A stretch of DNA of 64,000 nucleotides from Haliotis rubra. Its lineage: Eukaryota. The translations under genes and the position numbers were made by a program. Position 1 is the first letter of the stretch; every line of letters starts with the position of its first letter. The stretch covers positions 502,865 through 566,864 of the forward strand of contig NW_025766525.1 of assembly GCF_003918875.1 (NCBI RefSeq), given 5' to 3'. The notes beneath the pieces were generated by a model. The model was not told the DNA's origin. It saw nothing but the letters and a program-made list of their open reading frames with translations, and did not search any database. Positions 1-60,506 of this stretch are shown here, in pieces.

Positions 1-589
1 GTACGATTCAGTAGTTGATTTGCCACAAGTCTGCGATGGTTTTGGTGATGTCTTCTGAAAGTATTTGTAATAAATAGGTCATAACAATAACTAGTTGTCA
101 GGAATGTATTAACATCAATGGAATCAGTGGTGTGGGAGGTACTATATAATTATGCTTATTGAATCTTAAGACTAATAAAACATTACTGATATCTTTCTAG
201 AATGTACTACGCATAGGGCTAAGTGTATGCCTCTATTATATCACATTACATCAAAATCAGTGGTGAGCAGCTCATCTTCTCACTCTGGAAAGCCTAGGCT
301 TTCGGAGCCTTGACCACTTGCTGCTACGTTTATAAATACTATCACTGACTTTTAAATTTACAACAAAGTTGTTAGTTTTATATTTCTTTGTTATTTATTG
401 CTTTCACACACATATCTTTTGCAAAAAGATGCAACATGTCAGCATGCAACACATTATACACTCCGTCATATTCCCACCTGAAGTTTGGGCCAGTCAACTC
501 CGATGTTTATCGCAGAGATGGCATCATGTGTAAATCGAAGACATTAACACTATCAAGATGGACCATCATTATGTTTGTGTGGCTGCAAA

Positions 590-980
590 ACCTGTACAAA
601 CTTAGTAACCATAACATCGGGAACCAGTCTTGTGTAACCATGACAACTGGAGCTCGGTATGCCATCAAACTTCTTTTATTGTGTAACCATGACAACTGGA
701 GCTGGGTAACCATCAAACTACCATCAAACTTCTTTCATTGTGTAACCATGACAACTGGAGCTGGGTATACCAAACTTCTTTCATTGTGTAACCATGACAA
801 CTGAAGCTGGGTATACCATCAAACTTCTTTCATTGTGTAACCATGACAACTAGAGCTGAGTATGCTATCAAACTTCTTCCATTATGTAATCATGACAACT
901 GGAGCTGGGTATACCATCAAACTTCTTTCATTGTGTAACCATGACAACTTCAGCAAGGTATACACTTCTTATATTGTGTA
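590..980. repeat. Tandem satellite, roughly 48-60 bp unit x about 7 (core gtgtaaccatgacaactggagctgggtat...)
   Basis: Direct reading shows repeated units containing gtaaccatgacaactgg. ORFs 388..804 and 507..716 lie in this array and are probably spurious. Confidence 0.8.
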
Positions 981-1284
981 ACCATGGCACTGTTTACCAT
1001 GGTCTGTACGTATAGTCTGTGTTCTGACATCTGGAGCCGGAAGATACACATACAACCTACACTGCTAGGGCCAAGATATCCGCTTCAACTTGATTTTTTT
1101 GTTGGGTGTTTCTTGTGGCAAGTCCGGCACCACCTGCAGACAAACACAGCTCTGTAACATGTGGAATAGGATGCGTGTGACAGACATTACACCGTAACTA
1201 CAAATACTAGGTGAGAGTTGGGCACATACTTTGTGTGTTTATAAATTGTTGACAGTGAGGATTTAACCAAACCTGAAGAGGTTT

Positions 1285-1632
1285 TCAATTCTTTGAAGAG
1301 AGTCGTCCTTGGGGTACATATATGCATTTTCTGCGCTGAAAATGTCCTGTGACAGTTGTATCAATGTTTTAATAAAAATATTGTACAATAAATAAAATCT
1401 GTTTTATCTATTATACGGCCCCCACCTCGTGGAGTTACCTCCCGCTACGCATGAGCAGCCAACCAGGTAAGCACCTAGGCCCGTATCATCATTCCTTCTG
1501 CTGTCACTCCATTGAACGGATTGCCGCGGTCAGAGCTGAACTCCTTCCTTGGGTTAAAGAGAATAATGTCTGGGACACCACCACCTGTATGTATGGTCTT
1601 TATTTATGTCCTATGAACAGAACAGTAAGGCC
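1285..1632. repeat. Left inverted terminal repeat of element 1285-4565
   Basis: The reverse complement of 4205-4565 matches almost base for base (e.g. ggcccccacctcgtggagttacctcccgctacgcatg...). ORFs 1451..1732 and 4197..4403 are mirror-image artefacts of this repeat. Confidence 0.85.
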
Positions 1633-2004
1633 GGAGGCGGAGGAGGAGGGAATTCTCAAAAACACACAAATTGTATTAAAGAATAATGTGACTAACGCCA
1701 CAATCACGCACTTGTCACATGTCCCGTTTTGAGCTTCCGCGAGAGGCATGATGGGAGGGTAACCGACAGGGAGGAAAGGTACTGAGAGTTGACCTCGCAG
1801 GTTAAGCATAAGAGAACGCACAGAGTGCGAACGTAAACAACCCCACCCACCTTATGGTCTATCAGAGAGCACCGTAGGGGGGAAAAAACACTCACTACCG
1901 ACTATAATCTCCGTAGAGAATCGAAAGGAGGTATTACACCCAGCAGCGGACATATCAATAAAACACAATTGAAAGCAGCGTCAACAAAACCAGATAACCA
2001 AGAC

Positions 2005-2744
2005 TCACTCGGTCAGGGTGGCAGGACACTGTCCACTGGAGAGAACAGAATGGCCAAAGCTCGCACGATCACGTGAATGTGTATCGAGCTGATAGTGCCT
2101 GATAAAAGTGCTAGGCCGGCTCCAAAGAGCGGCAGAGCATATCTCTTCAATGGGTAGTGCCGATGCAAAAGCTTTTGACGTGGCTACTGCCCTGACCGAG
2201 TGAGCCTTCAACCCCTCAGGGGGAGGCTTGCCCTTAGCCTGATAAGCACCACAAATGACCGATACAAGCAAGCGAGACAGGGTCTGCACCAGATGTTACC
2301 GCCACCAGAAATACAGCCTTCCATGATAACAACTAAATGGAAATAGCCGATAGACGTGAGAACGTAGGACCGGATAGCCAATCTAGCACAATTGACAAAT
2401 CCCAAGGTGGGCTGGTTCGCCTGACAGCAGGTAGAACCCGATCCGTGCCAGCTGGGAGAGGACCAGGGGAATGAAAGCGCTTGTACAAGAGGGTGCTGCC
2501 CCAGAAGAGCACCATCGACAGGGGTGTGAAAGGTGGAAATAGTGGTGGAGTAGCCACGAATGGTCGAAGCCGCCAGGCCTTCTTCCAAACGAGCTTGCAA
2601 AAACTCCAATACTCGGACTAAATCTGCAGCCCAGAAAAGAGATCTGCAATCCCCTATCTGCACCGGCCCTGCACCAGGGACGGCAGGATGCGGAGGCGGT
2701 GAATTATGGTGGGCCTCCCTTCCACAGTGGTAGGTGGCCGACAC
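2005..2744 (-). pseudogene. Tyrosine recombinase (DIRS/Crypton-type YR), split over two overlapping ORFs (frameshift)
   Basis: ORF 2208..2744(-) carries a SAM-like core-binding motif (LVRVLEFLQARLEEGLAASTIRGYSTTISTFH). ORF 2005..2289(-) carries the H-x-x-R box and catalytic Tyr region (HSVRAVATSKAF...WSRPSTFIRHY). The two ORFs are in different frames. Confidence 0.6.
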
Positions 2745-3067
2745 TGACGGTGGACCCCAGCACCCAAGTGTTGCTTGTAGCCTTTCCCCTCCGGCAGGGA
2801 ATAGAGGCGGCCTCCCACTGGGGCGATGTGGTAAGAGAGGCGTGAGTGGTCCGAGTAGCTTGAGCTGGTTGGGACGGACCTAATGGCGACAGCCTGCCAA
2901 GAGGGTTAGCAAGGAGTGGTCGAGGGGCAGACCTCAGCGCCCTTGAAAAGGCTGGGAGCCAGGCTGAGAGGGTTGCCTCCAACAAGGCCTTAGAATCCTT
3001 GAAGGAGGTAGCTGCAGTGGGCAACGCCTCCCCAGGCTGGAGGAAGGGCCAGGCAAGGTCTGCTATG

Positions 3068-4045
3068 CTAGCTGCCAAAGTGGTAAGGGCGCGCCTGGCA
3101 GGCGGAACTCAGCCGAGGCAACCCGGAGTGTCCCAACCAGGAGGGGGATCCACCGCGTCCTGCACCTGGTAGGGCACTGAGTGGTTGGTAGGCAAGCGCC
3201 TGCGCCTGGATAAACTCAGCAATGCTTTGCCGCACCTCCCTCAGAGCGTTGCCGCCTCCCTCAAGCGGAAAGCGCCCTCCGGCTCCTCTACCTCCCCAAC
3301 GTCCATGGACTCGGCAGCCCGAGAGGGCTGGGACAGCGTGAGGGACCGGAACCCCAGGAATCCAGAGGGAACGGACCCTGGAAGGAGCTCCCGCCAACAC
3401 CGTGAACCAGAGGGGACTGGGAGCGAACCCTCCCTCTCATGGGGCGTAGCGGGCGAGGACTCGGTCCCGAGGAATCCGACCGGGCCAGAGGCAACGGACT
3501 CTACAGACGCCTCCGGGGGTAGCCGAGGATCGAGCCGGCTCGGGCGATCCCACCAAGGGAGGACTCTCCGGACCTCCTGCTGCTCAGAGTGGGCGAGGAA
3601 CTCCTGCCGGAGACCTCCAACCGACTCATGAACAAGGGACTTCACTGAGTCCATGTGCTGCTGAAAAAGCTGTGTTATTACGGACATGTCAAAACCGCTG
3701 GGAGCAGTAGAAGGCGCGCCTTACTGCGCGACTTAGCCTTTTTGCCTGTTTTTTGGCTTTAGACGGGGGGACCTGGGTCAGTTCCCCTCCCGCCTCTCGC
3801 ATTTCTCTATAAAAGAGGAAATCGGCAGCCCTTCTTTTCTGGGCTCGGGGGGAGAAGCCCATACAGAGTTCACATATGTCGGGATTATGTCTGACTTTCT
3901 CCAGACAAACGAGACACTTGTCATGCTTGTCTGCTCTGGGTATACTTTGTCCGCAGACAGTACAACCGGAAAACGCCTGAAAGCAAACACGCAAGCATGT
4001 AGCTAACAGCGGAGCCAGCAGCATAAATATACACATACAAAACAT
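3068..4045 (-). other. Gag-like region of the DIRS-like element (Cys/His-rich ORF 3689..4045 plus overlapping ORFs 3241..3687 and 3068..3400)
   Basis: ORF 3689..4045(-) carries CTVCGQSIPRADKHDKCLVCLEKVRHNPDICELC, which has zinc-knuckle-like spacing. Its position upstream of the YR in the element's sense orientation fits a gag-like role. Confidence 0.35.
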
Positions 4046-4204
4046 TGAAAATTACGTGAATGCGACCACGGGAAGAAATACTTGGTTAAAACGCAATATG
4101 ACAACCACGTGGCACGCTAAACTTCCCGCCATGGCAAAGCAACAAGTGCGTAAACCACGGGAAAGTTAGCGGAAAATATTTAATACAAAGTCACAATTAT
4201 GAGA

Positions 4205-4565
4205 CAACCGACCGCAAAGCCTTACTGTTCCGTTCATAGGACAAAATAAAGACCATACATACAGGTGGTGGTGTCCCAGACATTATTCTCTTTAACTTCG
4301 TTTTATGGAAGGAGTTCAGCTCTACACGGCACATCCGTTCAATGGAGTGACAGCAGAAGGAATGATGATACGGGCCTAGGTGCTTACCTGGTTGGCTGCG
4401 CATGCGTAGCAGGGAGGTAACTCCACAAGGTGGGGGCCGTATAATAGATAAAACAGATTTTATTTATTGTACAATATTTTTATTAAAACATTGATACAAC
4501 TGTCACAGGACATTTTCAGCGCAGAAAATGCATATATGTACCCCAAGGACGATCTCTATGAAAAA
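4205..4565. repeat. Right inverted terminal repeat of element 1285-4565
   Basis: It is the reverse complement of 1285-1632. Confidence 0.85.
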
Positions 4566-4935
4566 GAATTAACAGATTGTCAATGAATTGTCCTGTTTAG
4601 AAAACAGGGTTCTGCCACTTGGAATACTGTTGATCCATCGTCTAACTCGGGGACTGTCACAATGAGCAGATAGATAATAAGCAGACATAACTTAGAAACT
4701 TAAAACCTCTTCCTTTTCATTGAGACTGAGAACTAACTTTTCAATTTTTGAATCCCAGAAATATTTTGTGAATCATAACAGCATGTTTGTAATGAATTCC
4801 ATGTATTTGTCTGATTTCGTAGTCACTTGTGCATTTATCTCTGACTTCACATATTTAACATGTCTGTTATGGAATATGACAACACAAGATGACCCGAGGA
4901 AACATGGATGCGAAAGAGCTCGAGGATTCTATATG

Positions 4936-5377
4936 TTATAGTATGTGGAATCGGACTTGTATTGATATATTCAATGTAACCATGGTTACCTTGTTTATAC
5001 TCTCCTGTACATCCTTCATTTCAACATCTCCGTTCTCCTTCACTTTTGAGAGCTTCCCCTGACTTGGGCATTCCAAATGTTTGTTAATTAACTTAATAGT
5101 ACTATTTGTACTTGGCTTCTTTTCTTTAGAATCTGATGTAGGAGACATTGTAATTTTCACAATCTTCTTGGATAGTGTAGAATCATCTTGAGATACTGAT
5201 TTAGTCGGGGAACCTGGTGTGGTCGACTTAGACCCTGATCCAAGCTTGATCACCTTCCTACTCGTATCAATACAAGATGGCGGGGGCTTCAGGCGGTCAC
5301 CACCACCCTTGCTGGGATCACTGAATGATGTTAAGAAACGAGAAGACGAGGAATCTAACCCAGCGATTTTCTGTTTT
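4936..5377 (-). CDS. Ashwin (C2orf49-like) last coding exon, with stop at 4936-4938
   Basis: An AG acceptor (tatttcag) precedes it. The translation ...KQKIAGLDSSSS...GDRLKPPPSCIDTSRKVIKL...STNSTIKLINKHLECPSQGKLSKVK matches human Ashwin ...DRLKPPPQASFTSNAFRKL.... Its phase is consistent with exon 2. Confidence 0.6.
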
Positions 5378-5879
5378 CTGAAATACAAGGATATCATGAA
5401 CATAAATATTGTTAAAATCATGACATATGTCATATTAACAAAACTTTGCTCAGAGTTGGGTTATGTATGAATCACAAATCCTGGGTGTTGACAACAAAGG
5501 TGTTGAGCTACACAATGATAAACACCGTGACAGTCTGGCAGGGACAACTTTACCTCCAACATCATGGGGCAAACTCAAGGTGAATCTCATCCCTGTAACA
5601 ACATGAAGGTTTAGAACACATGGTCATCCGTCACCACAGCAGTCAGTACCGCAGCCTTCACCCTGATCGTATCTAATGTAAAACACTTCCCTTGTCATGC
5701 TCATATTGTTCCCAGCAATTGTATGAACTATTTTCTGCAACATAAACAATCTATAAAGAAGTCCCCATTTTCACTCAATCTGAAGCAAGTATGTTTAATA
5801 CGATCGGCAAAATGAGACAGTCATTAAACAATCGAACAAGGAATTCAACTTTTAATCTTATCACTGTCACATTGCTCAA

Positions 5880-6085
5880 CATCCAAAAGTTTGGTTTTCA
5901 AAATGACTGGCAAATGAACAGGGAATAAACCTGTGACGACCTTTACACTTCTTTAAACATGGTTGGTAGTCAGGGAATGAAACCTGTGACAACCTTTAGA
6001 CTTCTTTAAACATGGTTGGTAGTCAGGGAATGAAACCTGTGACAACCTTTAGACTTTTCAAACATGGTTGGTAGTCAGGAAACTA
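5880..6085. repeat. Tandem repeat, about 62 bp x 3 (cctgtgacaacctttagacttctttaaacatggttggtagtcagggaatgaaa)
   Basis: Direct reading shows three near-identical units. Confidence 0.8.
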
Positions 6086-6158
6086 ACCGAAACTTAGAAT
6101 GATCACATAAACAAAGACAGATACATGCAACATGTGTAAGCATGACATGATTACATAC

Positions 6159-6352
6159 TTTTGTGGAGGTTCATCCATGTCAGGAGCTGTGATGCGTCTC
6201 TTCTTGGCCAGAAGGATCTGTTTCTTAGTCAAGTCTTGTCCGCGGCGGTTCTGACGGTACTGCCTCTGAGGGAGGGGCAGGATGTACTTGTAGTAGAGCT
6301 GGAGGAGCTCTTCCTTATCCAGATCCTGCAGGTTGGGCATCTGGATGTACCT
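6159..6352 (-). CDS. Ashwin (C2orf49-like) coding exon 2
   Basis: It has the acceptor tttttcag|AGGTAC and the donor CCACAAAA|gtatgt. It encodes RYIQMPNLQDLDKEELLQLYYKYILPLPQRQYRQNRRGQDL..., matching human ...[33 protein letters not shown]. Confidence 0.6.
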
Positions 6353-7789
6353 CTGAAAAACACAGAATACACCATCAGTATCAGGAGCAGCAATGGTATT
6401 GATAATCACAAACACTTTAACTTGGACGATGATGAGTAAATATGAATTAGGTGGACACTTTGATACATTATCTCCAAATGGCACCAATGAACACTGATGA
6501 ATGCTGAATCAGGTGGTTGTCTTAGTGCTAAGATTCATATAAAGGTGTTGTAGCAAGAATAAATCTTTGCTGAGTCTATACTTGAAGCTGCCTTTACACT
6601 AAGATATCTTACATTTACAACAACAATACTTGAGACAGGGTCAGACTTGTGTTAGAAGCTTTAAATGGAACACAAGAGACAGCATGTTAAAGACAATCTT
6701 AATTTTAATGTTAAAGGACATTATTCAAACGAGTAGTTTCCTCAAGCACTAAGGAAAAACAAACCACAGATCCAACCAGTTGCGCCACCCAAATGTTGGA
6801 TTTACTCATTAAGACATGGTGGCTAACAATCATTCCATACAAAATGCTAAATGAATCAACATAGCCTTCCCATTTATTTTGGTTGAAACCCAAGCAGCAT
6901 GATTGAAAGACAATGCCTTTTTCTTGTCAACATGGTCAACAGAAGAGCAGAGCTAGATGTCAAGCTGCTTTAAAACAGCTTTAACAAGTTTATGAATAGG
7001 TAAATATTTTTCCTTTACAAATGAAAATGATTCTAGTTTGTGTTTCACCACTGTTGTGTAGAAATTACATTAGATGTATCAGGTCAGTTTACAGTCCAGA
7101 TACCTTGAAAGTTGAATCCCATTCATTTCCTTATACAATCATATATGGTTGTTTTGCATAAACCATGTGGCAGGTTTGGAACATCCTGTCTGTATACATA
7201 TATAGTCTATATGTATACATGTTGCATTGTTGTTCAGGACGTCCTTCTTCCTTCTACCAAAAGGATGTTGTTCCATGTATTTAAAGCAGTGACACAGGTC
7301 TTGTCCTGATAGATAATTTCAGCGTAAAGGACATCACAAGGACATCACAAGGACATCACAAGGAAGTCCTGAACATACAACAATGAAACATGCCTGCATC
7401 AAGGATATGAAATAGCTATCCATGATTTTCAACTCCCAACCTTTTTTCACACATATTTTTACTTCTTAGATGCTCTGAAGACATGCACAAATAACAAACA
7501 TATGTTAAATAAATCAGATCACTATGACTAGTGTAGAGGAATCTGTATTCTGACTTACAGTCAAGCTTTTAGTAAGAACTGAGCATCGCTCTTCTATCAA
7601 GCATGGCTGCGATCAGAGCGTGCAACATGTATCATATCACCAAGTACATAAATGATTGAACCTAACAATCAGTGTTGGATAACATCATTTTATATTGTGT
7701 CAGAAGTTACGTACAATAACATTAACTGACTTTTGTGCAGTGTCATGCTGAGAACTTTGTAACAGTGTGTGGTTTTGTGACTGTGAAAT

Positions 7790-8203
7790 TTGTTGTTTGA
7801 TCTGCGAGCATTTGCTCCAATGGCGGACTGTCTGAACAGACCGAAACCATTCTCCTGTGAAAGGAATGTTGCAGAAAACAGGCGACAGTTTGAGCAGGAA
7901 TTTGACATTTTACTTGTTGCTGCCTATAGCGACAAGTATGATAATACTCAAGCTTACATTTTCTTCAACACTGCAGGCAAGGAGCACACTGAAAGGGGCA
8001 AGTCATTTCAGTACGTGGGTGAGGAAACAAGTGAGAAATTGACTGTGCTCAAAGATATATTTAGTAACTGTGCATTCCTCAAACAAACATTACACTTGAG
8101 AGATTTAGATTCTTTTCATGGAATCAAGAAAAAGGTGAACCATTTCAAACATTTTATCCAGATCTCATCAACAAAGCTAATTCATGCAACTTTGGAAATT
8201 TGA
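7790..8203 (+). other. Unassigned 137-aa ORF in Ashwin intron 1, possibly a retroelement Gag-like remnant
   Basis: The ORF is MLFDLRAFAPMADCLNRPKPFSCERNVAENRRQFEQEFDILLVAAYSDKY.... It has a weak resemblance to the retrotransposon Gag (PF03732-like) spacing. No splice context was identified. Confidence 0.2.
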
Positions 8204-8312
8204 AAGATGAAATGTTAAGAGACAGGATAGCACTGATAAACACTGATGGTTTGAGAAAAACATGATCTTAATCTACCAGAGGCTGTAGCCCCAGTTGTAC
8301 AGTAGGACACCT

Positions 8313-10510
8313 CTAGCAAGGGTATATAGGAGCTGTGGACCACAGAGGCTCTAGCCCCAGTTGTACAGGCTGTAGGACATCTCTAGCATGGGTATATAGG
8401 AGCTGTGTAAACCTACAGAGGCTGTAGCCCCAGTTGTACAGTAGGACATCTCTAGCAAGGGTATATAGGAGCTGTGTAAACCTACAGAGGCTGTAGCCCC
8501 AGTTGTACAGTAGGACATCTCTAGCATGGGTATATAGGAGCTGTGTAAACCTACAGAGGCTGTAGCCCCAGTTGTACAGTAGGACATCTCTAGCATGGGT
8601 ATATAGGAGCTGTGTAAACCTACAGAGGCTGTAGCCCCAGTTGTACAGTAGGACATCTCTAGCATGGGTATATAGGAGCTGTGTAAACCTACAGAGGCTG
8701 TAGCCCCAGTTGTACAGTAGGACATCTCTAGCATCTAGCATGGGTATATAGGGAGCATGTGTGTAAACCTACAGAGGCTGTAGCCCCAGTTGTACAGTAG
8801 GACATCTCTAGCATGGGTATATAGGAGCTGTGTAAACCCACAGAGGCTGTAGCCCCAGTTGCACAGTAGGACATCTCTAGCATGGGTATATAGGAGGGTA
8901 CAGAGGCTGTAGCCACAGTTGTACAGAGGCTGTGTAGGAAACCTACAGAGGCTGTAGCCACCAGTTGTACAGTAGGACATCTCTAGCATGGGTATATAGG
9001 AGCTGTGTAAACCTACAGAGGCTGTAGCCCCAGTTGTGTAGGACATCTCTAGTGGGACATCTCTAGCAGGACATCTCTGGGTATATAGGAGCTGTGTGTA
9101 AACCTACAGAGGCTGTAGCCCCAGTTGTACAGTAGGACATCTCTAGCATGGGTATATAGGAGCTGTGTAAACCTACAGAGGCTGTAGCCCCAGTTGTACA
9201 GTAGGACATCTCTAGCATGGGTATATATATAGGAGCTGTGTAAATCTCCTGTAAACCCACAGAGGCTGTAGCCCCAGTTGTAGCACAGAGGCTGTAGCCC
9301 CAGTTGTACAGTAGGACATCTCTAGCATGGGTATATAGGAGCTGTGTAAACCTACAGAGGCTGTAGCCACAGTTGTACAGTAGGACATCTCTAGCATGGG
9401 TATATAGGAGCTGTGTAAACCTACAGAGGCTGTAGCCCCAGTTGTACAGTAGGACATCTCTAGCATGGGTATATAGGAGCTGTGTAAACCTACAGAGGCT
9501 GTAGCCACAGTTGTACAGTAGGACATCTCTAGCATGGGTATATAGGAGCTGTGTAAACCTACAGAGGTTGTGTAGCCCCAGCTTGTACAGTAGGTACACA
9601 TCTCTAGCATGGGGTATATAGGAGCTGTGTAAACCTACAGAGGCTGTAGCCCCAGTGTGCACAGTAGGACATCTCTAGCATGGGTATATAGGAGCTGTGT
9701 AAACCCACAGAGGCTGTCTAGCATGGGTATATAGGAGCTGCCCCAGTTGTACAGTAGGACATCTCTAGCATGGGTATATAGGAGCTGTGTAAACCTACAG
9801 AGGCTGTAGCCCCAGTTGTACAGTAGGACATCTCTAGCATGGGTATATAGGAGCTGTGTAAACCTACAGAGGCTGTAGCCCCAGTTGTACAGCCCCAATT
9901 GTACAGCAGGACATCTCAGGACATCTCTAGCATGGGTATATAGGAGCTGTGTAAACCTACAGAGGCTGTAGCCCCAGTTGTACAGTAGGACCCCAGCTGT
10001 GTACAGTAGGACATCTCTAGCATGGGTATATAGGAGGCTGTAGCCCCAGTTGTACAAGGACATCCTACAGAGGCTGTGTGTAGCCCCAGTTGTACAGTAG
10101 GACATCTCTAGCATGGGTATATAGGAGCTAGCATGTAAACCTACAGAGGCTGTAGCCCCAGTTGTACAGTAGGACATCTCTAGCAAGGGTATATAGGAGC
10201 TGTGTAAACCTACAGAGGCTGTAGCCCCAGTTGTACAGTAGGACATCTCTAGCATGGGTATATAGGAGCTGTGTAAACCTACAGAGGCTGTAGCCCCAGT
10301 TGTACAGTAGGACATCTCTAGCATGGGTATATAGGAGCTGTGTAAACCTACAGAGGCTGTACAGAGGCTGTAGCCCCAGTTGTACAGTAGGACATCTCTA
10401 GCATGGGTATATAGGAGCTGTGTAAACCTACAGAGGCTGTAGCCCCAGTTGTACAGTAGGACATCTCTAGCAAGGGTATATAGGAGCTGTGTAAACCTAC
10501 AGAGGTACAT
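8313..10510. repeat. Satellite array, roughly 69-70 bp unit x about 32 (ctacagaggctgtagccccagttgtacagtaggacatctctagcatgggtatataggagctgtgtaaac)
   Basis: The periodicity was measured directly (cctacagagg at 8411, 8481 and 8550). All six-frame ORFs from 8313 to 10510 are stop-free repeat artefacts. Confidence 0.9.
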
Positions 10511-20150: not shown

Positions 20151-21099
20151 GTTGGTGTAATTATAATGTTGTGGGTGAGTCAGCTACCTAGGTCCAAGGT
20201 TTGTTTGGAAGTCTAGTGAGTGAGTGAGGTTATTTTTATGCCGCACTCAGCAATATTCCAGCTATATGGCGGCGGTCTGTAAATAATCAAGTCCCGACAA
20301 GACAATCCAGTGATCACCAGCATGAGCATCGATCTATGCAATTGGGAACCGATGACAAGTCAGTGAGCCTGACCACCCGATCCCGTTAGTCGCCTCTTAC
20401 GACAATCATGGGTTACTGAAAATCAATATTCTAACCCAGATCTTCACAGGTATTTGGAAGTGTAGACTGCCAGTTGTCCGACTACCATTTTTGTGGAAGT
20501 CGCGGCAGCTGAGTGAGTTAGATGGCTGACTTTGTGTGCTGGCGATTAGGTACCTGACTCTGAGGGTGGGGGTCCCTCATGGGACTCAACCCAACAAAAG
20601 TACTACAATCTATACTTTACTGAGAAAGCAGAATATAATCCCAAATATAACATATGTTACATTTGACCACTTTCTAAATGGCATTGTGTATTCATATTCT
20701 ATTCCTATTAAATATAAGTGTACACATAACTGCATGGTAACAAGGTTATATACATTACTACTTAATAGTAACTATTCTTAATCTACCAAATCTTTATTAA
20801 AAGATATAAGACATAAGTCTGCTTAAATTTTCAGCAGTATGACTTTTTTCCCAATTTGCCTGCACTTGATGTGGGATCCATGGTGTGACAAACAAGTTAC
20901 AACTCAACTCCAATACAATCAGCCTAAACTCAATCCTTTACTCAGTTGCTCTTTCCCTCTGTCGACCCCTGTATCCACAGGCAAACTGTAGCACTAATAG
21001 GGTTGTGCATCAGAGAGTAAATGACCAGGAAGTATGTTGCCAACCTTTGTTTGTTTTGCTTGCAAATAGGAAGCCTGGTCATTTTTCTCTCTGTTGAGC

Positions 21100-21630
21100 A
21101 ACCATATATGTGCTGCGGTTTGCCTGTGATCTATCGTGACCAGTAGCAGATTCAGCTGCGGTTTGCCTGTGATCTATCGTGACCAGTAGCAGATTCAGCC
21201 ACGGTTTGCCTGTGATCTATCCTCACCAGTAGCAGATTCAGCTACAGTTTGCCTGTGATCTATCCTCACCAGTAGCAGATTCAGCTATGGTTTGCCTGTG
21301 ATCTATCCTGACCAGTAGCAGATTCAGCTATGGTTTGCCTGTGATCTATCCTCACCAGTAGCAGATTCAGCTTTGCCTGTGATTATCCTCACCAGTAGCA
21401 GATTCAGCTACGGTTTGCCTGTGATCTATCCTCACCAGTAGCAGATTCAGCTATGGTTTGCCTGTGATCTATCCTCACCAGTAGCAGATTCAGCTATGGT
21501 TTGCCTGTGATCTATCGTGACCAGTAGCAGATTCAGCTATGGTTTGCCTGTGATCTATCCTCACCAGTAGCAGATTCAGCTACAGTTTGCCTGTGATCTA
21601 TCGTGACCAGTAGCAGATTCAGCTGGCCAC
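21100..21630. repeat. Tandem array in PARP4 intron 3, about 43 bp x 12 (ggtttgcctgtgatctatcgtgaccagtagcagattcagct)
   Basis: Read directly from the sequence. Confidence 0.85.
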
Positions 21631-24839: not shown

Positions 24840-25170
24840 TTGCTTAGCCTGCCTAAACAGATGGGTCGGTAGAAACATGCAGGGTGGCAGCCTAAACAGA
24901 TGGGTTGGTAGAAACATGCAGGGTAGCTGCCTAAACAGATGGGTTGGTAGAAACATGCAGGGTAGCTGCCTAAACAGATGGGTTGGTAGAAACATGCAGG
25001 GTAGCTGCCTAAACAGATGGGTTGGTAGAAATATGAAGGGTAGCTGCCTAAACAGATGGGTAGGTAGAAACATGCAGGGTGGCAGCTTAAACAGATGGGT
25101 TGGTAGTAATATGAAGGGTAGCTGCCTGAACAGATGGGTTGGTAGAAACATGAAGGGTAGGCAGCTAGGA
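24840..25170. repeat. Tandem array in PARP4 intron 6, about 39 bp x 8 (cctaaacagatgggttggtagaaacatgcagggtagctg)
   Basis: Read directly. ORFs 24796..25209 and 24816..25151 are repeat artefacts. Confidence 0.85.
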
Positions 25171-25199
25171 TTATGGCACCTTAATTGGGTCGTATCGCC

Positions 25200-27600
25200 A
25201 AAGAATTGATGTGAGGTGCTACTAATGTGTATTAAAGTGCAAGAGAAGTACGTAGGAGGTTGCCTACTGGTGTATCCTGGGAGAAGTGCGTAGGAGGTTG
25301 CCTACTGGTGTATTGGGAGAAGTGTGTAGGAGGTTGCCTACTGGTGTATTTGGGAGAAGTGTGTAGGATGTTGCCTACTGATGTGTTTGGGAGAAGTATG
25401 TAGGAGGTTGCCTACTGGTGTATTGGGAGAAGTGTGTAGGAGGTTGCCTACTGGTGTGTTTGGGAGAAGTGTGTAGGAGGTTGCCTACTGGTGTGTTTGG
25501 GAGAAGTGTGTAGGATGTTGCCTACTGGTGTGTTTGGGAGAAGTGTGTAGGATGTTGCCTACTGGTGTGTTTGGGAGAAGTGAGTGAGAGGTTGCCTACT
25601 GATGTATTTGGGAGAAGTGTGTAGGAGGTTGCCTACTGGTGTGTTTGGGAGAAGTGAGTGAGGAGGTTGCCTACTGATGTATTTGGGAGAAGTGTGTAGG
25701 AGGTTGCCTACTGTGTGTGTTTGGGAGAAGTGAGTAGGAGGTTGCCTACTGATGTATTTGGGAGAAGTGTGTAGGAGGTTGCCTACTGGTGTGTTTGGGA
25801 GAAGTGCCCTACTGATGGTGAGAGGTTGCCTACTGATGTGTTTGGGAGAAGTGTGTAGGAGGTTGCCTACTGGTGTGTTTGGGAGAAGTGTGTAGGAGGT
25901 TGCCTGCTGGTGTATTTGGGAGAAGTGTGTAGGAGGTTGCCTACTGGTGTATTTGGGAGAAGTGTGTAGGAGGTTGCCTACTGGTGTGTTTGGGAGAAGT
26001 GAGTGAGAGGTTGCCTACTGATGTATTTGGGAGAAGTGTGTAGGAGGTTGCCTACTGGTGTGTTTGGGAGAAGTGAGTGAGAGGTTGCCTACTGATGTGT
26101 TTGGGAGAAGTATGTAGGAGGTTGCCTACTGGTGTGTTTGGGAGAAGTGTGTAGGAGGTTGCCTACTGGTGTATTTGGGAGAAGTGAGTAGGAGGTTGCC
26201 TGCTGGTGTATTTCGGAGAAGTATGTAGGGGCTTGCCTACTAGTATATTGGGAGAAGTGAGTAGGAGGTTGCCTGCTGTTGTATTTGGGAGAAGTGTGTA
26301 GGAGGTTGCCTACGGGTGTGTTTGGGAGAAGTGAGTGGGAGGTTGCCTACTGATGTATTTGGGAAAAGTGAGTGGGAGGTTGCCTACTGATGTATTTGGG
26401 AGAAGTATGTAGGGGGTTGCCTACTGGTGTATTGGGAGAAGTGTGTAGGAGGTTGCCTACTGGTGTATTTGGGAGAAGTATGTAGGAGGTTGCCTACTGG
26501 TGTATTTGGGAGAAGTATGTAGGAGGTTGCCTACTGGTGTATTTGGGAGAAGTGTGTAGGAGGTTGCCTATTGGTGTATTTGGGAGAAGTGTGTAGGAGG
26601 TTGCCTACTGGTGTATTTGGGAGAAGTGTGTAGGAGGTTGCCTACTGATGTATTTGGGAGAAGTGTGTAGGAGGTTGCCATTTGGGAGGAGAAGTGGAGG
26701 TTTACTGGGAGGGTGAAGTGTAGGAGGTTGCCTACTGGTGTGTTTGGGAGAAGTGAGTGGAGGTTGCCTACTGATGTGTTTGGGAGAAAGTATGTAGGAG
26801 GTTGCCCACTGGTGTGTTTGGGAGAAGTGTGTAGGAGGTTGCCTACTGGTGTGTTTGGGGGAGAAGTGTAGGATGTTGCCTACTGGTGTGTTTGGGAGAA
26901 GTGTGTAGGAGGTTGCCTACTGGTGTATTTGGGAGAAGTGTGTAGGAGGTTGCCCACTGGTGTGTTTGGGAGAAGTGTGTAGGAGGTTGCCTACTGGTGT
27001 GTTTGGGAGAAGTGAGTAGGAGGTTGCCTACTGGTGTATTTGGGAGAAGTGAGTGGGAGGTTGCCTACTGGTGTGTTTGGGAGAAGTGTGTAGGAGGTTG
27101 CCTACTGGTGTATTTGGGAGAAGTGTGTAGGAGGTTGCCTACTGGTGTGTTTGGGAGAAGTGAGTGAGAGGTTGCCTACTGATGTGTTTGGGAGAAGTAT
27201 GTAGGAGGTTGCCTACTGGTTACTGTGTTGTTTGGTAGAAGTGTGTAGGAGGTTGCCTATTGGTGTGTTTGGGAGAAGTTAGTAGGAGGTTGCCTACTGA
27301 TGTGTTTGGGAGAAGTGTGTAGGATGTTGCCTACTGATGTGTTTGGGAGAAGTGTGTAGGAGGTTGCCTACTGGTGTGTTTGGGAGAAGTGTGTAGGAGG
27401 TTGCCTACTGGTGTGTTTGGGAGAAGTATGTAGGAGGTTGCCTACTGGTGTGTTTGGGAGAAGTGAGTGAGAGGTTGCCTACTGATGTATTTGGGAGAAG
27501 TGTATAGGATGTTGCCTACTGGTGTGTTTGGGAGAAGTGTGTAGGAGGTTGCCTACTGGTGTGTTTGGGAGAAGTGAGTGAGAGGTTGCCTACTGATGTG
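25200..27600. repeat. Minisatellite in PARP4 intron 6, about 37 bp x about 65 (gggagaagtgtgtaggaggttgcctactggtgtgttt)
   Basis: Read directly. Confidence 0.9.
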
Positions 27601-27636
27601 TCCTGGAAGTATTCAGTCCTATTGTCCTTGCTGCAG

Positions 27637-29289: not shown

Positions 29290-32040
29290 CATTGTGGTCA
29301 TTATTGAGTACTCACTGAAGAAGATAATGTTATGTAGTTAGCTCACCTGATGCAAGTGCCCAAGACAATGTTATTAAGTAGTCTCACCTGATGCAAGTGC
29401 CCAAAACAATGTTATCAAGTAGGCTCACCTGATGCAAGTGTCCAAAACAATGTTATCAAGTAGTCTCACCTGATGCAAGTGATGTTAGAGTGCCCAGGTG
29501 AAAGGTGCCCAAGACAATGTTATTAAGTAGTCTCACCTGGTGAAGAGTGCCCAAGTCAATGATATCAAGTAGTCTCACCTGGTGAAGAGTGCCCGAGACA
29601 ATGTTATCAAGTAGTCTCACCTGATGCAAGTGCCCGAGACAATGTTATTAAGTAGTCTCACCTGGTGAAGAGTGCCCAAAACAATGTTATCAAGTAGTCT
29701 CACCTGATGAAGTGCCCAAGAACAATGTTATTAAGTAGTCTCACCTGGTGAAGAGTGCCCAAAACAATGTTATCAAGTAGTCTCACCTGATGCAAGTGCC
29801 CAAGACAATGTTATTAAGTAGTCTCACCTGGTGAAGAGTGCCCAAAACAATGTTATCAAGTAGTCTCACCTGATGCAAGTGCCCAAGACAATGTTATTAA
29901 GTAGTCTCACCTGGTGAAGAGTGCCCAAAACAATGTTATCAAGTAGTCTCACCTGGTGAAAAGTGCCCAAAACAATGTTATCAAGTAGTCTCACCTGGTG
30001 AAGAGTGCCCAAAACAATGTTATCAAGTAGTCTCACCTGGTGAAAAGTGCCCAAAACAATGTTATCAAGTAGTCTCACCTGGTGCAAGTGCCCAAAACAA
30101 TGTTATCAAGTAGTCTCACCTGGTGAAAAGTGCCCAAAACAATGTTATCAAGTAGTCTCACCTGGTGAAAAGTGCCCAAGACAATGTTATCAAGTAGTCT
30201 CACCTGGTGAAAAGTGCCCAAAACAATGTTATCAAGTAGTGCAGAAAAGTGCCCAAAACAATGTTATCAAGTAGTCTCACCTGGTGAAAAGTGCCCAAAA
30301 CAATGTTATTAAGTAGTCTCACCTGGTGAAAAGTGCCCAAAACAATGTTATCAAGTAGTCTCACCTGGTGAAAAGTGCCCAAAACAATGTTATCAAGTAG
30401 TCTCACCTGGTGAAAAGTGCCCAAGACAATGTTATTCAAGTAGTCTCACCTGGTGAAAAGTGCCCAACATAATGTTATTAAGTAGTCTCACCTGGTGAAA
30501 GAGTGCCCAAGACAATGTTATCAAGTAGTCTCACCTGGTGAAAAGTGCCCAAAACAATGTTATCAAGTAGTCTCAAGTAGTCTCACAATGTTATCAAAGT
30601 CTCACCTGGTGCCCAAAACAATGTTATCAAGTAGTCTCACCTGGTGAAAAGTGCCCAAAACAATGTTATCAAGTAGTCTCACCTGGTGAAAAGTGCCCAA
30701 AACAATGTTATCAAGTAGTCTCACCTGGTGAAAAGTGCCCAAAACAATGTTATCAAGTAGTCTCACCTGGTGAAGAGTGTGCCAAAGACAATGTTATCAA
30801 GTAGTCTCACCTGGTGAAAAGTGCCCAAGATAATGTTATTAAGTAGTCTCACCTGGTGAAAAGTGCCCAAAACAATGTTATCAAGTAGTCTCACCTGGTG
30901 AAAAGTGCCCAAAACAATGTTATCAAGTAGTCTCACCTGGTGAAAAGTGCCCAAGACAATGTTATTAAGTAGTCTCACCTGGTGAAAAGTGCCCAAGATA
31001 ATGTTATCAAGTAGTCTCACCTGGTGAAAAGTGCCCAAAACAATGTTATCAAGTAGTCTCACCTGGTGAAAAGTGCCCAAGACAATGTTATCAAGTAGTC
31101 TCACCTGGTGAAAAGTGCCCAAAACAATGTTATCAAGTAGTCTCACCTGGTGAAAAGTGCCCAACATAATGTTATTAAGTAGTCTCACCTGGTGAAAAGT
31201 GCCCAACATAATGTTATTAAGTAGTCTCACCTGGTGAAAAGTGCCCAAAACAATGTTATCAAGTAGTCTCACCTGGTGAAGAGTGCCCAAAACAATGTTA
31301 TCAAGTAGTCTCACCTGGTGAAAAGTGCCCAAAACAATGTTATCAAGTAGTCTCACCTGGTGAAAAGTGCCCAAAACAATGTTATCAAGTAGTCTCACCT
31401 GGTGAAAAGTGCCCAAAACAATGTTATCAAGTAGTCTCACCTGATGCAAGTGCCCAAGACAATGTTATTAAGTAGTCTCACCTGTGCAAGTGCCCAAGAC
31501 AATGTTATTAAGTAGTCTCACCTGGTGAAGAGTGCCCAAAACAATGTTATCAAGTAGGTCTCACCTGATGAAAAGTGCCCAAAACAATGTTATTAAGTAG
31601 TCTCACCTGGTAAAAAGTGCCCAAAACAATGTCATCAAGTAGTCTCACCTGGTGAAGAGTGCCCAAACAATGTTATCAAGTAGTCTCACCTGGTGAAAAG
31701 TGCCCAAACAATGTTATCAAGTAGTCTCACCTGGTGAAAAGTGCCCAAAACAATGTTATCAAGTAGTCTCACCTGGTGAAAAGTGCCCAACATAATGTTA
31801 TTAAGTAGTCTCACCTGGTGAAAAGTGCCCAACATAATGTTATTAAGTAGTCTCACCTGTGAAAAGTGCCCAACAAATGTTACAAGTCAAGTAGTCTCAC
31901 CTGGTGAAAAGTGCCCAACATAATGTTATTAAGTAGTCTCACCTGTGAAAAGTGCCCAACATAATGTTATTAAGTAGTCTCACCTGTGAAAAGTGCCCAA
32001 CATAATGTTATTAAGTAGTCTCACCTGTGAAAAGTGCCCA
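29290..32040. repeat. Minisatellite in PARP4 intron 10, about 42 bp x about 65 (gtagtctcacctggtgaaaagtgcccaaaacaatgttatcaa)
   Basis: Read directly. The unit resembles the sequence just upstream of the exon 11 acceptor (aatgttatga...atttagctcacctggctctgttgcag). ORFs 29866-31449 are artefacts. Confidence 0.9.
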
Positions 32041-32112
32041 ACATAATGTTATGATTTATTAGTCACCGAAATGTTAATGACATGGTATTTAGCTCACCTG
32101 GCTCTGTTGCAG

Positions 32113-32296
32113 CACCAGTGCCCAGTACTCCCGTGAGAGCAAGACAAAGGGCACACGGCTGATGCTGGTGGCTGATGTTGCTCTTGGCCAGTGTAAGGAT
32201 CTGTTTAACCATGACAGGACCCTCAAGTGCCCCCCAGAGGGCTATCACAGTGTACATGGTGTCAAGAACTCTCCCAACACACCATCAGACTTCATG
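32113..32296 (+). CDS. PARP4: PARP4 exon 11 (PARP catalytic)
   Basis: The acceptor is tgttgcag|C and the donor is ATG|gtagga. TSAQYSRESKTKGTRLMLVADVALGQCKDLFNHDRTLKCPPEGYHSVHGVKNSPNTPSDF matches human TSIKYSHPGETDGTRLLLICDVALGKCMDLHEKDFSLTEAPPGYDSVHGVSQTASVTTDF. Confidence 0.85.
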
Positions 32297-32299
32297 GTA

Positions 32300-33286
32300 G
32301 GATGCTTTGACTGCCAGGCTGATGTTTGAGTATGTTTTGATTGCAAGGCTGATGTTTGAGTATGTCTGACTGCCAGGCTGATGTTTGAGTATGTCTGACT
32401 GCCAGGCTGATGTTTGAGTATGTTTGACTGCCAGGCTGATGTTTGAGTATGTTTGACTGCCAGGCTAATTGTTTAGTATGTTTGACAGCCAGGCTGATGT
32501 TTGAGTATGTCTGACTGCCAGGCTGATGTTTGAGTATGTCTGACTGCCAGGCTGATGTTTGAGTATGTCTGACTGCCAGGCTGATGTTTGAGTATGTTTG
32601 ACAGCCAGGCTGATGTTTGAGTATGTCTGACTGCCAGGCTGATGTTTGAGTATGTCTGACTGCCAGGCTGATGCTTTAGTATGTTTGACTGCCAGGCTGA
32701 TGTTTGAGTATGTTTGACAGCCAGGCTGATGTTTGAGTATGTCTGACTGCCAGGCTGATGTTTTAGTATGTTTGACAGCCAGGCTGATGTTTGAGTATGT
32801 TTGACTGCCAGGCTGATGTTTGAGTATGTTTGACTGCCAGGCTGATGTTTGAGTATGTCTGACTGCCAGGCTGATGTTTGAGTATGTCTGACTGCCAGGC
32901 TGATGCTTTAGTATGTTTGACTGCCAGGCTGATGTTTGAGTATGTTTGACAGCCAGGCTGATGTTTGAGTATGTCTAACTGCCAGGCTGATGCTTTAGTA
33001 TGTTTGACAGCCAGGCTGATGTTTGAGTATGTTAGACTGCTAGGCTGACGTTTTAGTATGTTTGACAGGCTGATGTTTGACTGTTTGACTGCCAGGCTGA
33101 TTTTTGAGATGTTTGACTGCCAGGCTGATGTTTGAGTATGTTTGACTGCCAGGCTGATGTTTGTGTATGTTTGACTGTCAGGCTGATGTTTGAGTGTCAG
33201 GCTGATGTTTGACTGTTTGACTGCTAGGCTAATGTTTGAGTATGTTACTGTGCCAGGCTGATGTGTGATGATGTTTTTACTTCCAG
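32300..33286. repeat. Minisatellite in PARP4 intron 11, about 29 bp x about 34 (ctgatgtttgagtatgtctgactgccagg), abutting exon 12
   Basis: Each unit contains ccag|gctgatg, which is identical to the real acceptor plus the first 7 nt of exon 12 (ccag|GCTGATGag). Confidence 0.9.
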
Positions 33287-34605: not shown

Positions 34606-35172
34606 CATTCTTTTCCCACAGAGGTTACTCCTGTCATATCTTCCCACATGTAACCTCTGTTCTAATAATGCCCTTTCATGGTGTGAGCTGCTTCAAGACT
34701 CCTCGGATTGGAGACAATCAGATTTAGTTGTGCAATCAGCAACGCTTGTTTCAAAAGTGATCATTCGCAAGGCCCTCGGTAATTTCCGTGATACTTCGAG
34801 AAAACTAAACCTTCTTCCCGCGCCGATGCGCTAAACGCTTCCTCTAGACAGAACTCAGTCATGTTATGGCGGATCAGTGGATCTCCATCGCCTCGCTGAC
34901 AACGGACAAGCTAGCCATTAAACGCCTTGTGTGTAACATCAACACAAGTCCCCGCAGATGGGGATATTTGTGGCTTCACATTTGCTTGTGTTAGTCAAGT
35001 TGAATCTAAGTCGATGTAACACCTGTTCTGATTGGATAGAAAGAAGGGAGATAATTCATTTTGCGATCTTTGCCGCTTAGGGATTTTAAGAGAACCGGGA
35101 AATATGGCCGTATTAGAACAGAGGTTACGTGTAGGAAGATATGACAGGAGTAACCTCTGTGGGAAGAGAATG
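34606..35172. mobile_element. MITE (about 567 bp, TIRs of about 55 bp), copy 1, in PARP4 intron 14
   Basis: The left TIR is cattcttttcccacagaggttactcctgtcatatcttcccacatgtaacctctgttctaata. Its reverse complement lies at 35118-35172 (tattagaacagaggttacgtgtaggaagatatgacaggagtaacctctgtgggaagagaatga). Confidence 0.7.
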
Positions 35173-35809
35173 ATGAAGAGACACTGGTAAGTTTGGCTGA
35201 AGGTCAACAGTGAAGGTCGTGGACATTATCTCATGGACAGAGATGAAGAGACACTGGTAAGTTTGGCTGAAGGTCAACAGTGAAGGTCATGGAGCTTATC
35301 TCATGGACAGAGATGAAGAGACACTGGTAAGTTTGGCTGAAGGTCAACAGTGAAGGTCATGGAGCTTATCTGATGGACAGAGATGAAGAGACACCGGTAA
35401 GTTTGGCTGAAGGTCAACAGTGAAGGTCATGGAGCTTATCTGATGGACAGAGATGAAGAGACACCGGTAAGTTTGGCTGAAGGTCAACAGTGAAGGTCAT
35501 GGAGCTTATCTGATGGACAGAAGATGAAGAGACACACCTGTAAGTTTGGCTCAAGGTCAACAGTGAAGGTCATGGAGCTTATCTGATGGACAGAGATGAA
35601 GAGACACTGGTAAGTTTGGCTGAAGGTCAACAGTGAAGGTCATGGAGCTTATCTCATGGACAGATTAAGAGACACTGGTAAGTTTGGCTGAAGGTCAACA
35701 GTGAAGGTCATGGAGCTTATCTGATGGACAGAGATGAAGAGACACCGGTAAGTTTGGCTGAAGGTCAGTAGTGATGCTCATGGAGCTTATCTGATGGACA
35801 GAGATGAAG

Positions 35810-36377
35810 CATTCTCTTCCCACAGAGGTTACTCCTGTCATATCTTCCCACGTAACCTCTGTTCTAATAATGGCCCTTTCATGGTGTGAAGCGTTCAAGA
35901 CTTCGTGATTGGAGACAATCAGATTTAGTTGTGCAATCAGCGGCGTTGTTTCAAAAGTGATCATTTGCAAGGCCTCGGTAATTTCCGTATACTCGAGAAA
36001 ACTAAACCTCTTCCCCTGCGCGCGATGCGCATAGCGTTTCCTCTAGACAGAACTCAGTCATGTTATGGCCCGGATCAGTGGCGTCTCCATCGCCCTCGTT
36101 GACAACGGACAAGCTAGCCATTAAAGCGTCTTGTGTGTAACATCAACACAAGTCCCCGGCAGATGGGGGATATTTGTGGCTTCACATTTGCTTGTGTTAG
36201 TCAAGTTGAATCTAAGTCGATGTAACACCTGTTCTGATTGGATAGAAAGAAGGGAGATAATTGCATTTTTGCGATCTTTTGCGCTAGGGATTTTAAGAGA
36301 ACGGGAAATATGGTCAGATTAGAACAGAGGTTACGTGAGGAAGATATGACAGGAGTAACCTCTGTGGGAAGAGAATG
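35810..36377. mobile_element. MITE copy 2 (same family as 34606-35172)
   Basis: It is near-identical to copy 1 and sits in the same donor-repeat context. This implies duplication of a MITE-plus-array block. Confidence 0.7.
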
Positions 36378-36679
36378 AGATGAAGAAGAGACACTGGTAA
36401 GTTTGGCTGAAGGTCAACAGTGAAGGTCATGGAGCTTATCTCATGGACAGAGATGAAGAGACATTGGTAAGTTTGGCTGAAGGTCAACAGTGAAGGTCAT
36501 GGAGCTTATCTCATGGACAGAGATGAAGAGACACTGGTAAGTTTGGCTGAAGGTCAACAGTGAAGGTCATGGAGCTTATCTCATGGACAGAGATGAAGAG
36601 AGAATGGTAAGTTCGGTCATCAGTGAAGGTTATGGGGTGTGTTGTAAGAGAAGGTCATTTATCCATTCTGATGGACAGA

Positions 36680-37200
36680 ATTTTAGGATTGCAGTAAGTT
36701 AGAGGTGAAGGTCTGACAGGGATGTTGTCAGGGAAGATTGTGGATCTTGTCTGATACAGTAAGTTAGAGGTGAAGGTCTGACAGGGATGTTGTCAGGGAA
36801 GATAGTGGCTCTTGTCTGATACAGCAAGTTAGAGGTGAAGGTCTGACAGGGATGTTGTCAGGGAAGATTGTGGATCTTGTCTGATACAGTAAGTTAGAGG
36901 TGAAGGTCTGACAGGGATGTTGTCAGGGAAGATTGTGGATCTTGTCTGATACAGTAAGTTAGAGGTGAAGGTCTGACAGGGATGTTGTCAGGGAAGATTG
37001 TGGATCTTGTCTGATACAGTAAGTTAGAGGTGAAGGTCTGACAGGGATGTTGTCAGGGAAGATAGTGGCTCTTGTCTGATACAGCAAGTTAGAGGTGAAG
37101 GTCTGACAGGGATGTTGTCAGGGAAGATTGTGGATCTTGTCTGATACAGTAAGTTAGAGGTAAGGTCTGACAGGGATGTTGTCAGGGAAGATTGTGGATC
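36680..37200. repeat. Tandem array, about 62 bp x 8 (cagtaagttagaggtgaaggtctgacagggatgttgtcagggaagattgtggatcttgtctgata)
   Basis: Read directly. Confidence 0.85.
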
Positions 37201-37319
37201 TTGTCTGATACAGTAGAGAATAACGTCTTGATTGAAAGAGAACAACAGGGCTCCCACGGGTCAGGGAAAAGTCAGAACCAGGCATATTGATATTGCTGTC
37301 ATCACTAAGAACCAGTTTC

Positions 37320-60407: not shown

Positions 60408-60506
60408 AAGCTGGTTCGTAAACCTTCAAGACATAGCCGAACCAGATCCCGTGCCACTTCCTGTTCGACCTGATCTACTGGTACATCCGCACACCGACCA
60501 ACTGCA

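Follow-up and report, generated by a model that had tools for sequence, protein, structure and literature searches.

A stretch of 64,000 nt of Haliotis rubra DNA (contig NW_025766525.1, positions 502,865 to 566,864; hereafter the window, to which coordinates refer unless a locus or contig is named) contains on its minus strand an element of about 3.3 kb that is bounded by long inverted terminal repeats (ITRs). In our judgement this element is likely to be one decayed, internally deleted copy of a DIRS1-like tyrosine-recombinase retrotransposon (order DIRS), from a gastropod lineage close to the elements of Haliotis asinina. Comparison with its relatives gives a colinear map, consisting of gag scraps, codons 5-63 of pol, a 1.83-kb gap, recombinase residues 72-180, a 306-bp gap and recombinase residues 283-366. 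Both termini are retained, including an extension that is specific to the right end, whereas the gag core, the reverse transcriptase, RNase H and methyltransferase (RT/RH/MT) domains, the N-terminus and catalytic core of the recombinase, and the internal complementary region (ICR) have been lost. An earlier examination of the letters without database searches (the sequence-only reading) had offered two alternatives, a non-autonomous, internally deleted DIRS derivative mobilised in trans or a Crypton-like DNA transposon, either of which would be a poorly described class. The DIRS affiliation and the internal deletion are supported by the pol stub, the colinear map and the homology of the termini to those of DIRS1-like elements. 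The element is, however, a known kind of object and not a new class: DIRS1-like elements of molluscs have been known since 2011 (PMC3266345), fragmented genomic DIRS copies are common in Dictyostelium (PMC7192593), and degenerate DIRS families are common in Xenopus (PMC9210276).

In the sequence-only reading the element occupied positions 1285-4565 and carried perfect ITRs of 340 bp. The inverted repeats are real, and the reverse-complement alignment of the arms 1297-1631 and 4219-4557 extends over 343 columns (E = 6e-147). They are not perfect, since the identity is 94.2%; about 6 substitutions and some 8 small insertion or deletion (indel) events separate the arms, which leaves an ITR of about 335 nt with about 98% identity by substitutions. 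When the ends were set by homology to the termini of H. asinina elements, they were found to run further than had been assumed, to about 1261-4569. The left start at 4569 is ATTCTTTTTCATAGAGATCGTCC... and begins with ATT, and the right-hand extension to about 1261-1268 is ...CCTCTTCAGGTTTGGTTAAAT, with an uncertainty of a few bases in the end point. The outer 42 nt (4528-4569) are 93% identical to the left terminus of two complete H. asinina elements, L005 and L006, and complementary to their left ICR, and positions 1268-1316 are complementary to their right ICR. Over longer distances, positions 4446-4571 and 1268-1397 align with the left and right termini of both elements, the latter segment with positions 13481-13611 of L005 and also with L006. 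Altogether, the element ends are 73-93% identical to the termini and ICRs of L005 and L006. Because the right-specific divergent tip and the extension are both present, the right arm is a true right end of the element rather than a second copy of the left arm. Neither reading of the sequence nor self-comparison of the window revealed a direct repeat flanking 1261-4569; no target-site duplication is therefore seen, as expected for integration by a recombinase. All coding remnants lie on the minus strand, and the GC content of the interior is 56-60%, compared to a background of about 38-45%.

The relatives used for the comparison were of two kinds. Four contigs (L001-L004), of which two encode close recombinase matches and two came from a search with the L002 pol protein, show the common order of an ORF1/gag open reading frame (ORF), a pol ORF of 660-745 aa with RVT_1, and a tyrosine recombinase frame that overlaps pol; L001, L002 and L003 are metagenome contigs. 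In Pfam, the pol product of L002 matches RVT_1 (E = 8e-22) and, weakly, RT_RNaseH (E = 0.008) and the N6-adenine methyltransferase family Dam (E = 0.0014), and this is the RT/RH/MT series of DIRS1-like elements. Additionally, two complete elements of H. asinina, L005 (7140-13619; CM074541.1) and L006 (6671 to about 13253; CM074534.1), were retrieved through the annotated pol proteins P0011 and P0013. Their ITRs are about 200-223 nt long and 98-99% identical, and both elements have the layout lITR...lICR-rICR-rITR-rE (l, left; r, right; rE, right extension), with an ATT start and an AAT junction. The ICR is the reverse complement of the left start (ATTCTTTTTCATAGAGATCC...), directly followed by the reverse complement of the right end and right extension, and in L006 the two matches reach 98% and 100% identity over 45 and 54 nt. 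The ATT start, the AAT junction and the right extension belong to the published anatomy of mollusc DIRS1-like elements (PMC3266345). The nearest named relatives are proteins of H. asinina, and with a GC content of about 40% the window has an abalone-like base composition (PMC11393055). A combined Gypsy/DIRS1 category is already in use in the RepeatMasker-type annotation of H. asinina.

In three of the contigs (L001 1150-3834, L002 210-3440 and L003 2167-5361), the recombinase frame stays open for about 700 codons upstream of the recombinase domain and overlaps the whole pol ORF, which is read in another frame. Many database proteins of about 950 aa have a C-terminal recombinase domain preceded by about 630 residues without a Pfam match, which look like this pol-overlapping frame. 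Long ORF overlaps are known in DIRS1-like elements and have been reported to be absent in molluscs (PMC3266345). Moreover, the terminal-region repeats of L003 are direct and not inverted (387-504/6138-6255 and 5789-5815/6097-6123); the contig has ICR-like segments, but an ITR was not detected in it. A DIRS1-like element may here have been assembled in tandem, across a circular junction or as a chimera, and L003 was excluded from the comparison of terminal anatomy.

The Cys/His-rich ORF which the sequence-only reading had termed gag-like is indeed the remnant of an ORF1/gag N-terminus (Table 1): positions 3764-3955 are homologous to residues 3-66 of the L003 gag (BLASTP: 50% identity, E = 3e-22). 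Pfam returned only sub-threshold zinc-ribbon matches for its product, and no matches were obtained when 267 aa of the 5' gag region served as a protein query. The rest of gag survives as colinear islands in changing frames, at 3589-3666 (corresponding to residues 93-118 of the L004 gag), 3277-3306 and 2977-3015 (an FKDSKALLE box). The LAP2alpha-like gag core of about 240 residues has shrunk to about 260 nt in the window copy; the ORF1/gag of L003 matches the Pfam family LAP2alpha above threshold (PF11560, 32 bits), and the LAP2alpha domain is derived from ORF1 of DIRS1-like elements (PMC4495291). As had been stated previously, the element contains no RT or RNase H, and of pol only residues 5-63 are left, with a stop codon. 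The same stub also aligns at the DNA level to positions 571-695 of L002. At its edge lies the first deletion junction, across which all of RT, RNase H and the Dam-like methyltransferase domain, together with the first ~71 residues of the recombinase, have disappeared. According to the sequence-only reading itself, an RT at this position, between gag and recombinase, in other genomic copies would refute its interpretation and mark a simple deletion derivative; compared with the relatives, this is what is seen, since L001-L003, L005 and L006 have the RT at exactly that place and the pol stub lies at the deletion edge of the window copy.

The tyrosine-recombinase ancestry of the remaining coding sequence, proposed in the sequence-only reading, can be maintained, whereas the claim that a recombinase is encoded cannot. 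What is left is split into two separate pieces, distributed over three reading frames and interrupted by an in-frame stop, and the first ~71 residues and the box-I arginine are deleted. The upstream piece comprises the SAM-like N-domain, followed by the catalytic domain as far as ...FLVAVTSG, and carries a frameshift near 2478 in addition to the stop. The downstream piece holds AHSVRA (HxxR box), the W and the ...FIRHYQLD Tyr box, and ends at a stop codon at 2005-2007. The second deletion junction, which separates them, marks the loss of about 306 bp (about 102 residues) with the box-I arginine (RRVGDIHAM) and the central beta region, and shows as a 104-column alignment gap. In total the window copy has at least five frameshifts and two stops, and it encodes no enzyme or other functional protein.

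The recombinase remnants are 70-81% identical to the proteins P0001-P0005 and to the L002 recombinase. A stitched conceptual recombinase retrieved seven proteins, five of them at 70-80% identity and one, P0007, more distant (E = 2.5e-8); the latter matches PF00589 with 37.6 bits at a cut-off of 27.1. An exhaustive profile search gathered 18,215 representative relatives. A profile built from 24 of their recombinase domains matched Cre/Tre (E = 2.6e-5 to 1e-4) over the SAM-like N-domain and the HxxR...W region, with the latter aligned to Cre/Tre residues 289-328, and 11 of the 24 sequences match PF00589 individually. In contrast, the eight window ORF fragments and the stitched recombinase alone gave no significant Pfam family. 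Judged by these profile comparisons, the tyrosine-recombinase identity holds at the family level, via the relatives. A profile of 10 close recombinases gave only spurious kinase matches among PDB sequences, and an AlphaFold2 model of P0001 (7-sequence alignment) was unusable (mean predicted local distance difference test score, 40.9).

A recombinase-related coding sequence and the lack of an RT domain are what would be expected of a Crypton-like DNA transposon, namely a cut-and-paste element that has only a recombinase and has acquired long terminal inverted repeats. The tyrosine recombinase of Cryptons is indeed a relative of the DIRS enzymes, and the window element once encoded such an enzyme too. 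However, Cryptons have no gag, pol, RT or ITR/ICR system, whereas the window element retains the first ~60 codons of pol and remnants of an apparently DIRS1-type ORF1, and at its ends it shows homology to DIRS1-like termini, which in the relatives go together with an ICR. Moreover, in each of its closest relatives RT/RH/MT is located between gag and the recombinase, and its own recombinase is frameshifted and lacks the box-I arginine region. The Crypton alternative is excluded by the pol remnant, ORF1 and the termini of the ICR-bearing relatives, and we give it next to no credence. An affiliation with Ngaro/PAT-like elements was also rejected: full-length relatives of the window element share with them the coding capacity for gag, RT/RH and a recombinase, but Ngaro/PAT elements have split direct repeats, none of which was found in positions 1-8000, and the window element has only inverted terminal repeats, to which its relatives add an ICR and a Dam-like pol domain (a weak match).

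The window copy also differs from its complete relatives in the ICR. The sequence-only reading had recommended looking for an ICR-like segment near 1632-2005, and none was detected there by any of three methods. With blastn-short, neither tip has a match of 12 nt or longer in the element interior. Sensitive blastn found no homology of 1632-2004 to the 3' regions or ICRs of L002, L003, L005 and L006. Smith-Waterman scores for the expected left and right ICR were 7 and 12, within the range of shuffled sequences (maxima 14-15), whereas three positive controls (L005, L006 and a second DIRS1-like element of the window, described below) scored 27-54 against shuffle maxima of at most 19. Deletion of the ICR from Dictyostelium DIRS-1 experimentally abolishes retrotransposition, with cDNA still being made (PMC7192593). 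Because the ICR is essential there, the window copy is, by analogy, most likely immobile even in trans. In each cycle the ICR is needed as the template for both the right extension and the divergent tips; it had therefore probably not yet been lost when the copy last integrated, and disappeared afterwards.

These results bear on the possibility that the element belongs to a non-autonomous DIRS1-derived family, in which the deletions preceded the last transposition and RT and recombinase were supplied in trans by autonomous relatives. Such a family would account for the intactness of both termini and of the right-specific extension, which are homologous to those of functional-looking relatives, as well as for the ~98% identity of the ITR arms by substitutions; furthermore, the RT of DIRS-1 acts in trans on the RNA of a truncated element (PMC7192593). 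The same source does not show a full cycle for that truncated construct, and the abolition of DIRS-1 retrotransposition by ICR deletion speaks against mobility of an element from which the ICR is absent. A check for other copies, run within the 64-kb window, found no second copy of the 3.3-kb element, and the other DIRS1-like element of the window has unrelated termini and an unrelated ICR. Mobilisation in trans, as suggested in the sequence-only reading, thus finds no support in the ICR-less window copy, and we regard a family of this kind as unlikely. Metagenome DNA scans gave 0 matches to the deletion-junction pattern CCCTGGTGCAGGGCCGGTGCAGATAG and 0 to the terminal pattern TTTTTCATAGAGATCNTCCTTGGGGTAC, which is weak evidence as the host genome is unlikely to be covered; the same applies to exact-product look-ups of the window ORFs 3241-3687 and 3689-4045, which are not on record in collections that are unlikely to cover the host. 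A more unusual variant, a propagating family of ICR-less DIRS1 derivatives whose ends are regenerated via the ~335-nt ITRs, for example by fold-back copying, and which is mobilised in trans, seems to us very improbable. If true, it would mean that some DIRS1-like elements can do without the ICR.

The length of the ITR and the absence of an ICR might have a common origin. Either the whole family has a long ITR and a more deeply placed ICR has been deleted, or one repair event has replaced the ICR. In the latter case, which is compatible with a decayed DIRS1-like copy and forms a sub-hypothesis of it, a break near the ICR would have been followed by copying of the left arm past the ITR boundary into the 5' untranslated region (UTR) and by end joining, so that the ITR was lengthened and the ICR removed. 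Within the innermost ~110 nt of the window ITR lies CTGTATGTATGGT (4250-4262), which in L005, L006 and L003 is unique 5'-UTR sequence outside the ITR. The ICR of the relatives lies 35-55 nt inside the right ITR, the exact place of the extra ITR sequence here, and the differences between the two arms, both mismatches and indels, are concentrated at 1522-1552, close to where the ITR of the relatives has its boundary. On the other hand, the arms can still be aligned across this cluster, which forms no clean junction, and ITR length varies among DIRS1-like families (conserved part 31-304 nt; PMC3266345), so that the long ITR may be a family trait. We therefore put the repair event forward tentatively, as the less probable course.

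The motif (C)CTGTATGTATGGT(C/T)T occurs in the 5' leader of three diverged families (window 4250-4262 and 1587-1599; L005 7447-7474 and L006 6980-7007; L003 104-120), and is present twice in the window copy, as it lies inside the ITR. It may be a candidate cis-acting site, for example a transcript start or a priming site.

If the established replication model of Cappello et al., summarised in PMC7192593 and PMC3266345, is applied to the progenitor by analogy, a history of the window copy as a decayed DIRS1-like retrotransposon can be outlined. The progenitor would have been an element of about 6.3-6.6 kb with the order lITR, ORF1/gag, pol (RT, RNase H and Dam-like methyltransferase), tyrosine recombinase, lICR-rICR, rITR and rE. 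Transcription would have started inside the left ITR, and a transcript without the outermost ends would have been converted by RT into single-stranded cDNA. The left repeat would then have been restored from the right repeat, with the ICR serving as the template for the tips and the right extension; the product would have been a circle with a circular junction, which the recombinase would have integrated without a target-site duplication. Its canonical termini and right extension, and the fact that no target-site duplication is seen, suggest that the window copy was inserted by this circle pathway. The remaining deletions, frameshifts and stops are most simply explained by ordinary decay after insertion. 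The restoration of the left repeat from the right one in each cycle makes the divergence of the ITRs usable as a rough indicator of age; with an indel density of about 8 events per ~680 nt of the ITR pair, we estimate that the same neutral decay would predict many frameshifts in the 2.6-kb interior.

Several points weigh against this account. The copy count covers the 64-kb window only, and if the deletion junctions were shared by other copies, the deletions would have to be placed before the insertion. The comparators are relatives of 70-80% identity that do not belong to the same family as the window copy. The arms are still ~98% identical by substitutions, though the interior has lost half of its length. 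Finally, the ITR of ~335 nt, compared to ~223 nt in the H. asinina relatives, is longer than that of any mollusc element in PMC3266345, and its extension over a 5'-UTR motif that is unique in the relatives is not explained by simple decay; a family trait or a repair event may be responsible.

Among known systems, the closest are the DIRS1-like elements of molluscs, i.e. AcaDIRS1/2 of Aplysia and LgDIRS1-3 of Lottia (Piednoel et al. 2011, PMC3266345), and those of H. asinina. The window element shares with them the ITRs, the ATT start, the right extension, the absence of a target-site duplication, the Cys-rich ORF1 N-terminus and the order of gag, pol and recombinase; its recombinase remnants can be aligned at 69-76% DNA identity, and over the terminal 42 nt its identity to the abalone elements is 93%. 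It differs from them in its size (3.3 kb versus 4.7-6.6 kb), in the lack of RT/RH/MT, gag core and ICR, in its broken recombinase, and in the length of its ITR (~335 nt, versus ~223 nt in abalone and ~66-175 nt in the listed mollusc elements). With DIRS-1 of Dictyostelium (Cappello 1985 model; Malicki et al. 2020, PMC7192593) it has in common the architecture, the presumed replication logic and the likely need of an ICR for mobility, and many truncated or fragmented copies of DIRS-1 are present in genomes. However, DIRS-1 is a distant sequence family, in which the recombinase ORF lies upstream of pol and overlaps it, whereas here the catalytic part of the recombinase follows pol. Non-autonomous derivatives of LTR retrotransposons (LARD/TRIM and the Dasheng type) resemble the window element in having terminal repeats around a non-coding or decayed interior, and provide a model for mobilisation in trans; in contrast to the many copies with the same internal structure found there, one copy is known here, and it is missing the ICR, the cis-element on which regeneration of the ends depends.

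What looked like an odd recombinase-only element with long ITRs is thus probably a routine degraded DIRS1-like insertion, which in itself matters little. The analysis has some value for annotation, as it gives exact ends and deletion junctions for one copy (Table 1) and identifies a second, near-complete DIRS1-like element in the window. Furthermore, the two clean H. asinina reference elements with exact ICRs could seed a family library for abalone-type genomes. New insight into DIRS replication would follow only if many ICR-less copies with the same junctions existed genome-wide.

Table 1. Features of the 3.3-kb DIRS1-like copy and repeats of the surrounding window.
Feature	Position	Strand	Remarks
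Left terminus (lTer)	4219-4569	-	Conserved ITR 4219-4552; outer divergent part ~4551-4569
5' UTR, left ITR to ORF1	4046-4218	-	By sequence reading; no homology found outside the ITR
ORF1/gag, N-terminal remnant	3689-4045	-	Cys-rich; motif C-x2-C...H-x2-C-x2-C...C-x2-C
ORF1/gag, degenerate rest	2977-3687	-	At least 3 frame changes; islands only (tblastn of L003/L004 gag)
pol (RT/RH/MT) ORF, first ~60 codons	2698-2880	-	tblastn of L002 pol residues 5-63, 42% identity, E = 1e-5; one stop
Deletion junction 1	2663-2677	-	Local DNA alignments on both sides; ~1.83 kb missing relative to L002 (695 to 2524)
Recombinase residues ~72-180	2288-2633	-	tblastn against L002 recombinase, 82% and 60% identity
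Deletion junction 2	2287-2289	-	L002 2875 aligns to 2289, L002 3182 to 2287
Recombinase, C-terminal remnant	2005-2286	-	81% identity to L002 recombinase residues 283-366, E = 3e-41
3' UTR	1632-2004	-	Without the ICR expected just inside the right ITR
Right terminus (rTer)	1261-1631	-	Conserved ITR 1303-1631; divergent ~1288-1302; right extension (rE) ~1261-1287
Minisatellite arrays near the 3.3-kb element	630-963, 5919-6079		
Other minisatellite arrays	8277-10509, 21112-21624, 24849-27601, 29326-33195, 35172-37215, 38086-43142, 47475-48672, 55248-55574		
H. asinina counterparts of shared repeats	L005 14556-14731, 20456-20662; L006 6035-6240, 19138-19279		

The second DIRS1-like element of the window is near-complete, belongs to a different family and occupies positions 55947-62746 of the plus strand (about 6.8 kb). 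Its ITRs (55946-56156 and 62501-62708) match over 175 nt at 97% plus 48 nt at 90%, and its clear ICR (62365-62445) is the complement of both ends, namely of the left start (TTTAAACTTATCC...) and of the right end with the extension. The RT/RH/MT region (58675-60486) is distributed over three frames with at least two frameshifts and is 34-41% identical to the L002 pol, and the recombinase is present in two pieces, at 60558-60821 and 61024-61644. As a helper of the 3.3-kb copy this element was rejected, in view of its unrelated termini and ICR and the distance of its pol from that of L002.

The window is crowded with minisatellite arrays, with periods of 23-218 nt and up to 68 copies (Table 1), and these account for strong GC-skew blocks and for several long ORFs that consist of repeats only. 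Additionally, interspersed repeats at 20215-20665 and 34964-35176 are 83-85% identical to H. asinina sequence that flanks the DIRS elements there, and the similarity of these short repeats suggests a common family resembling short interspersed elements (SINEs).

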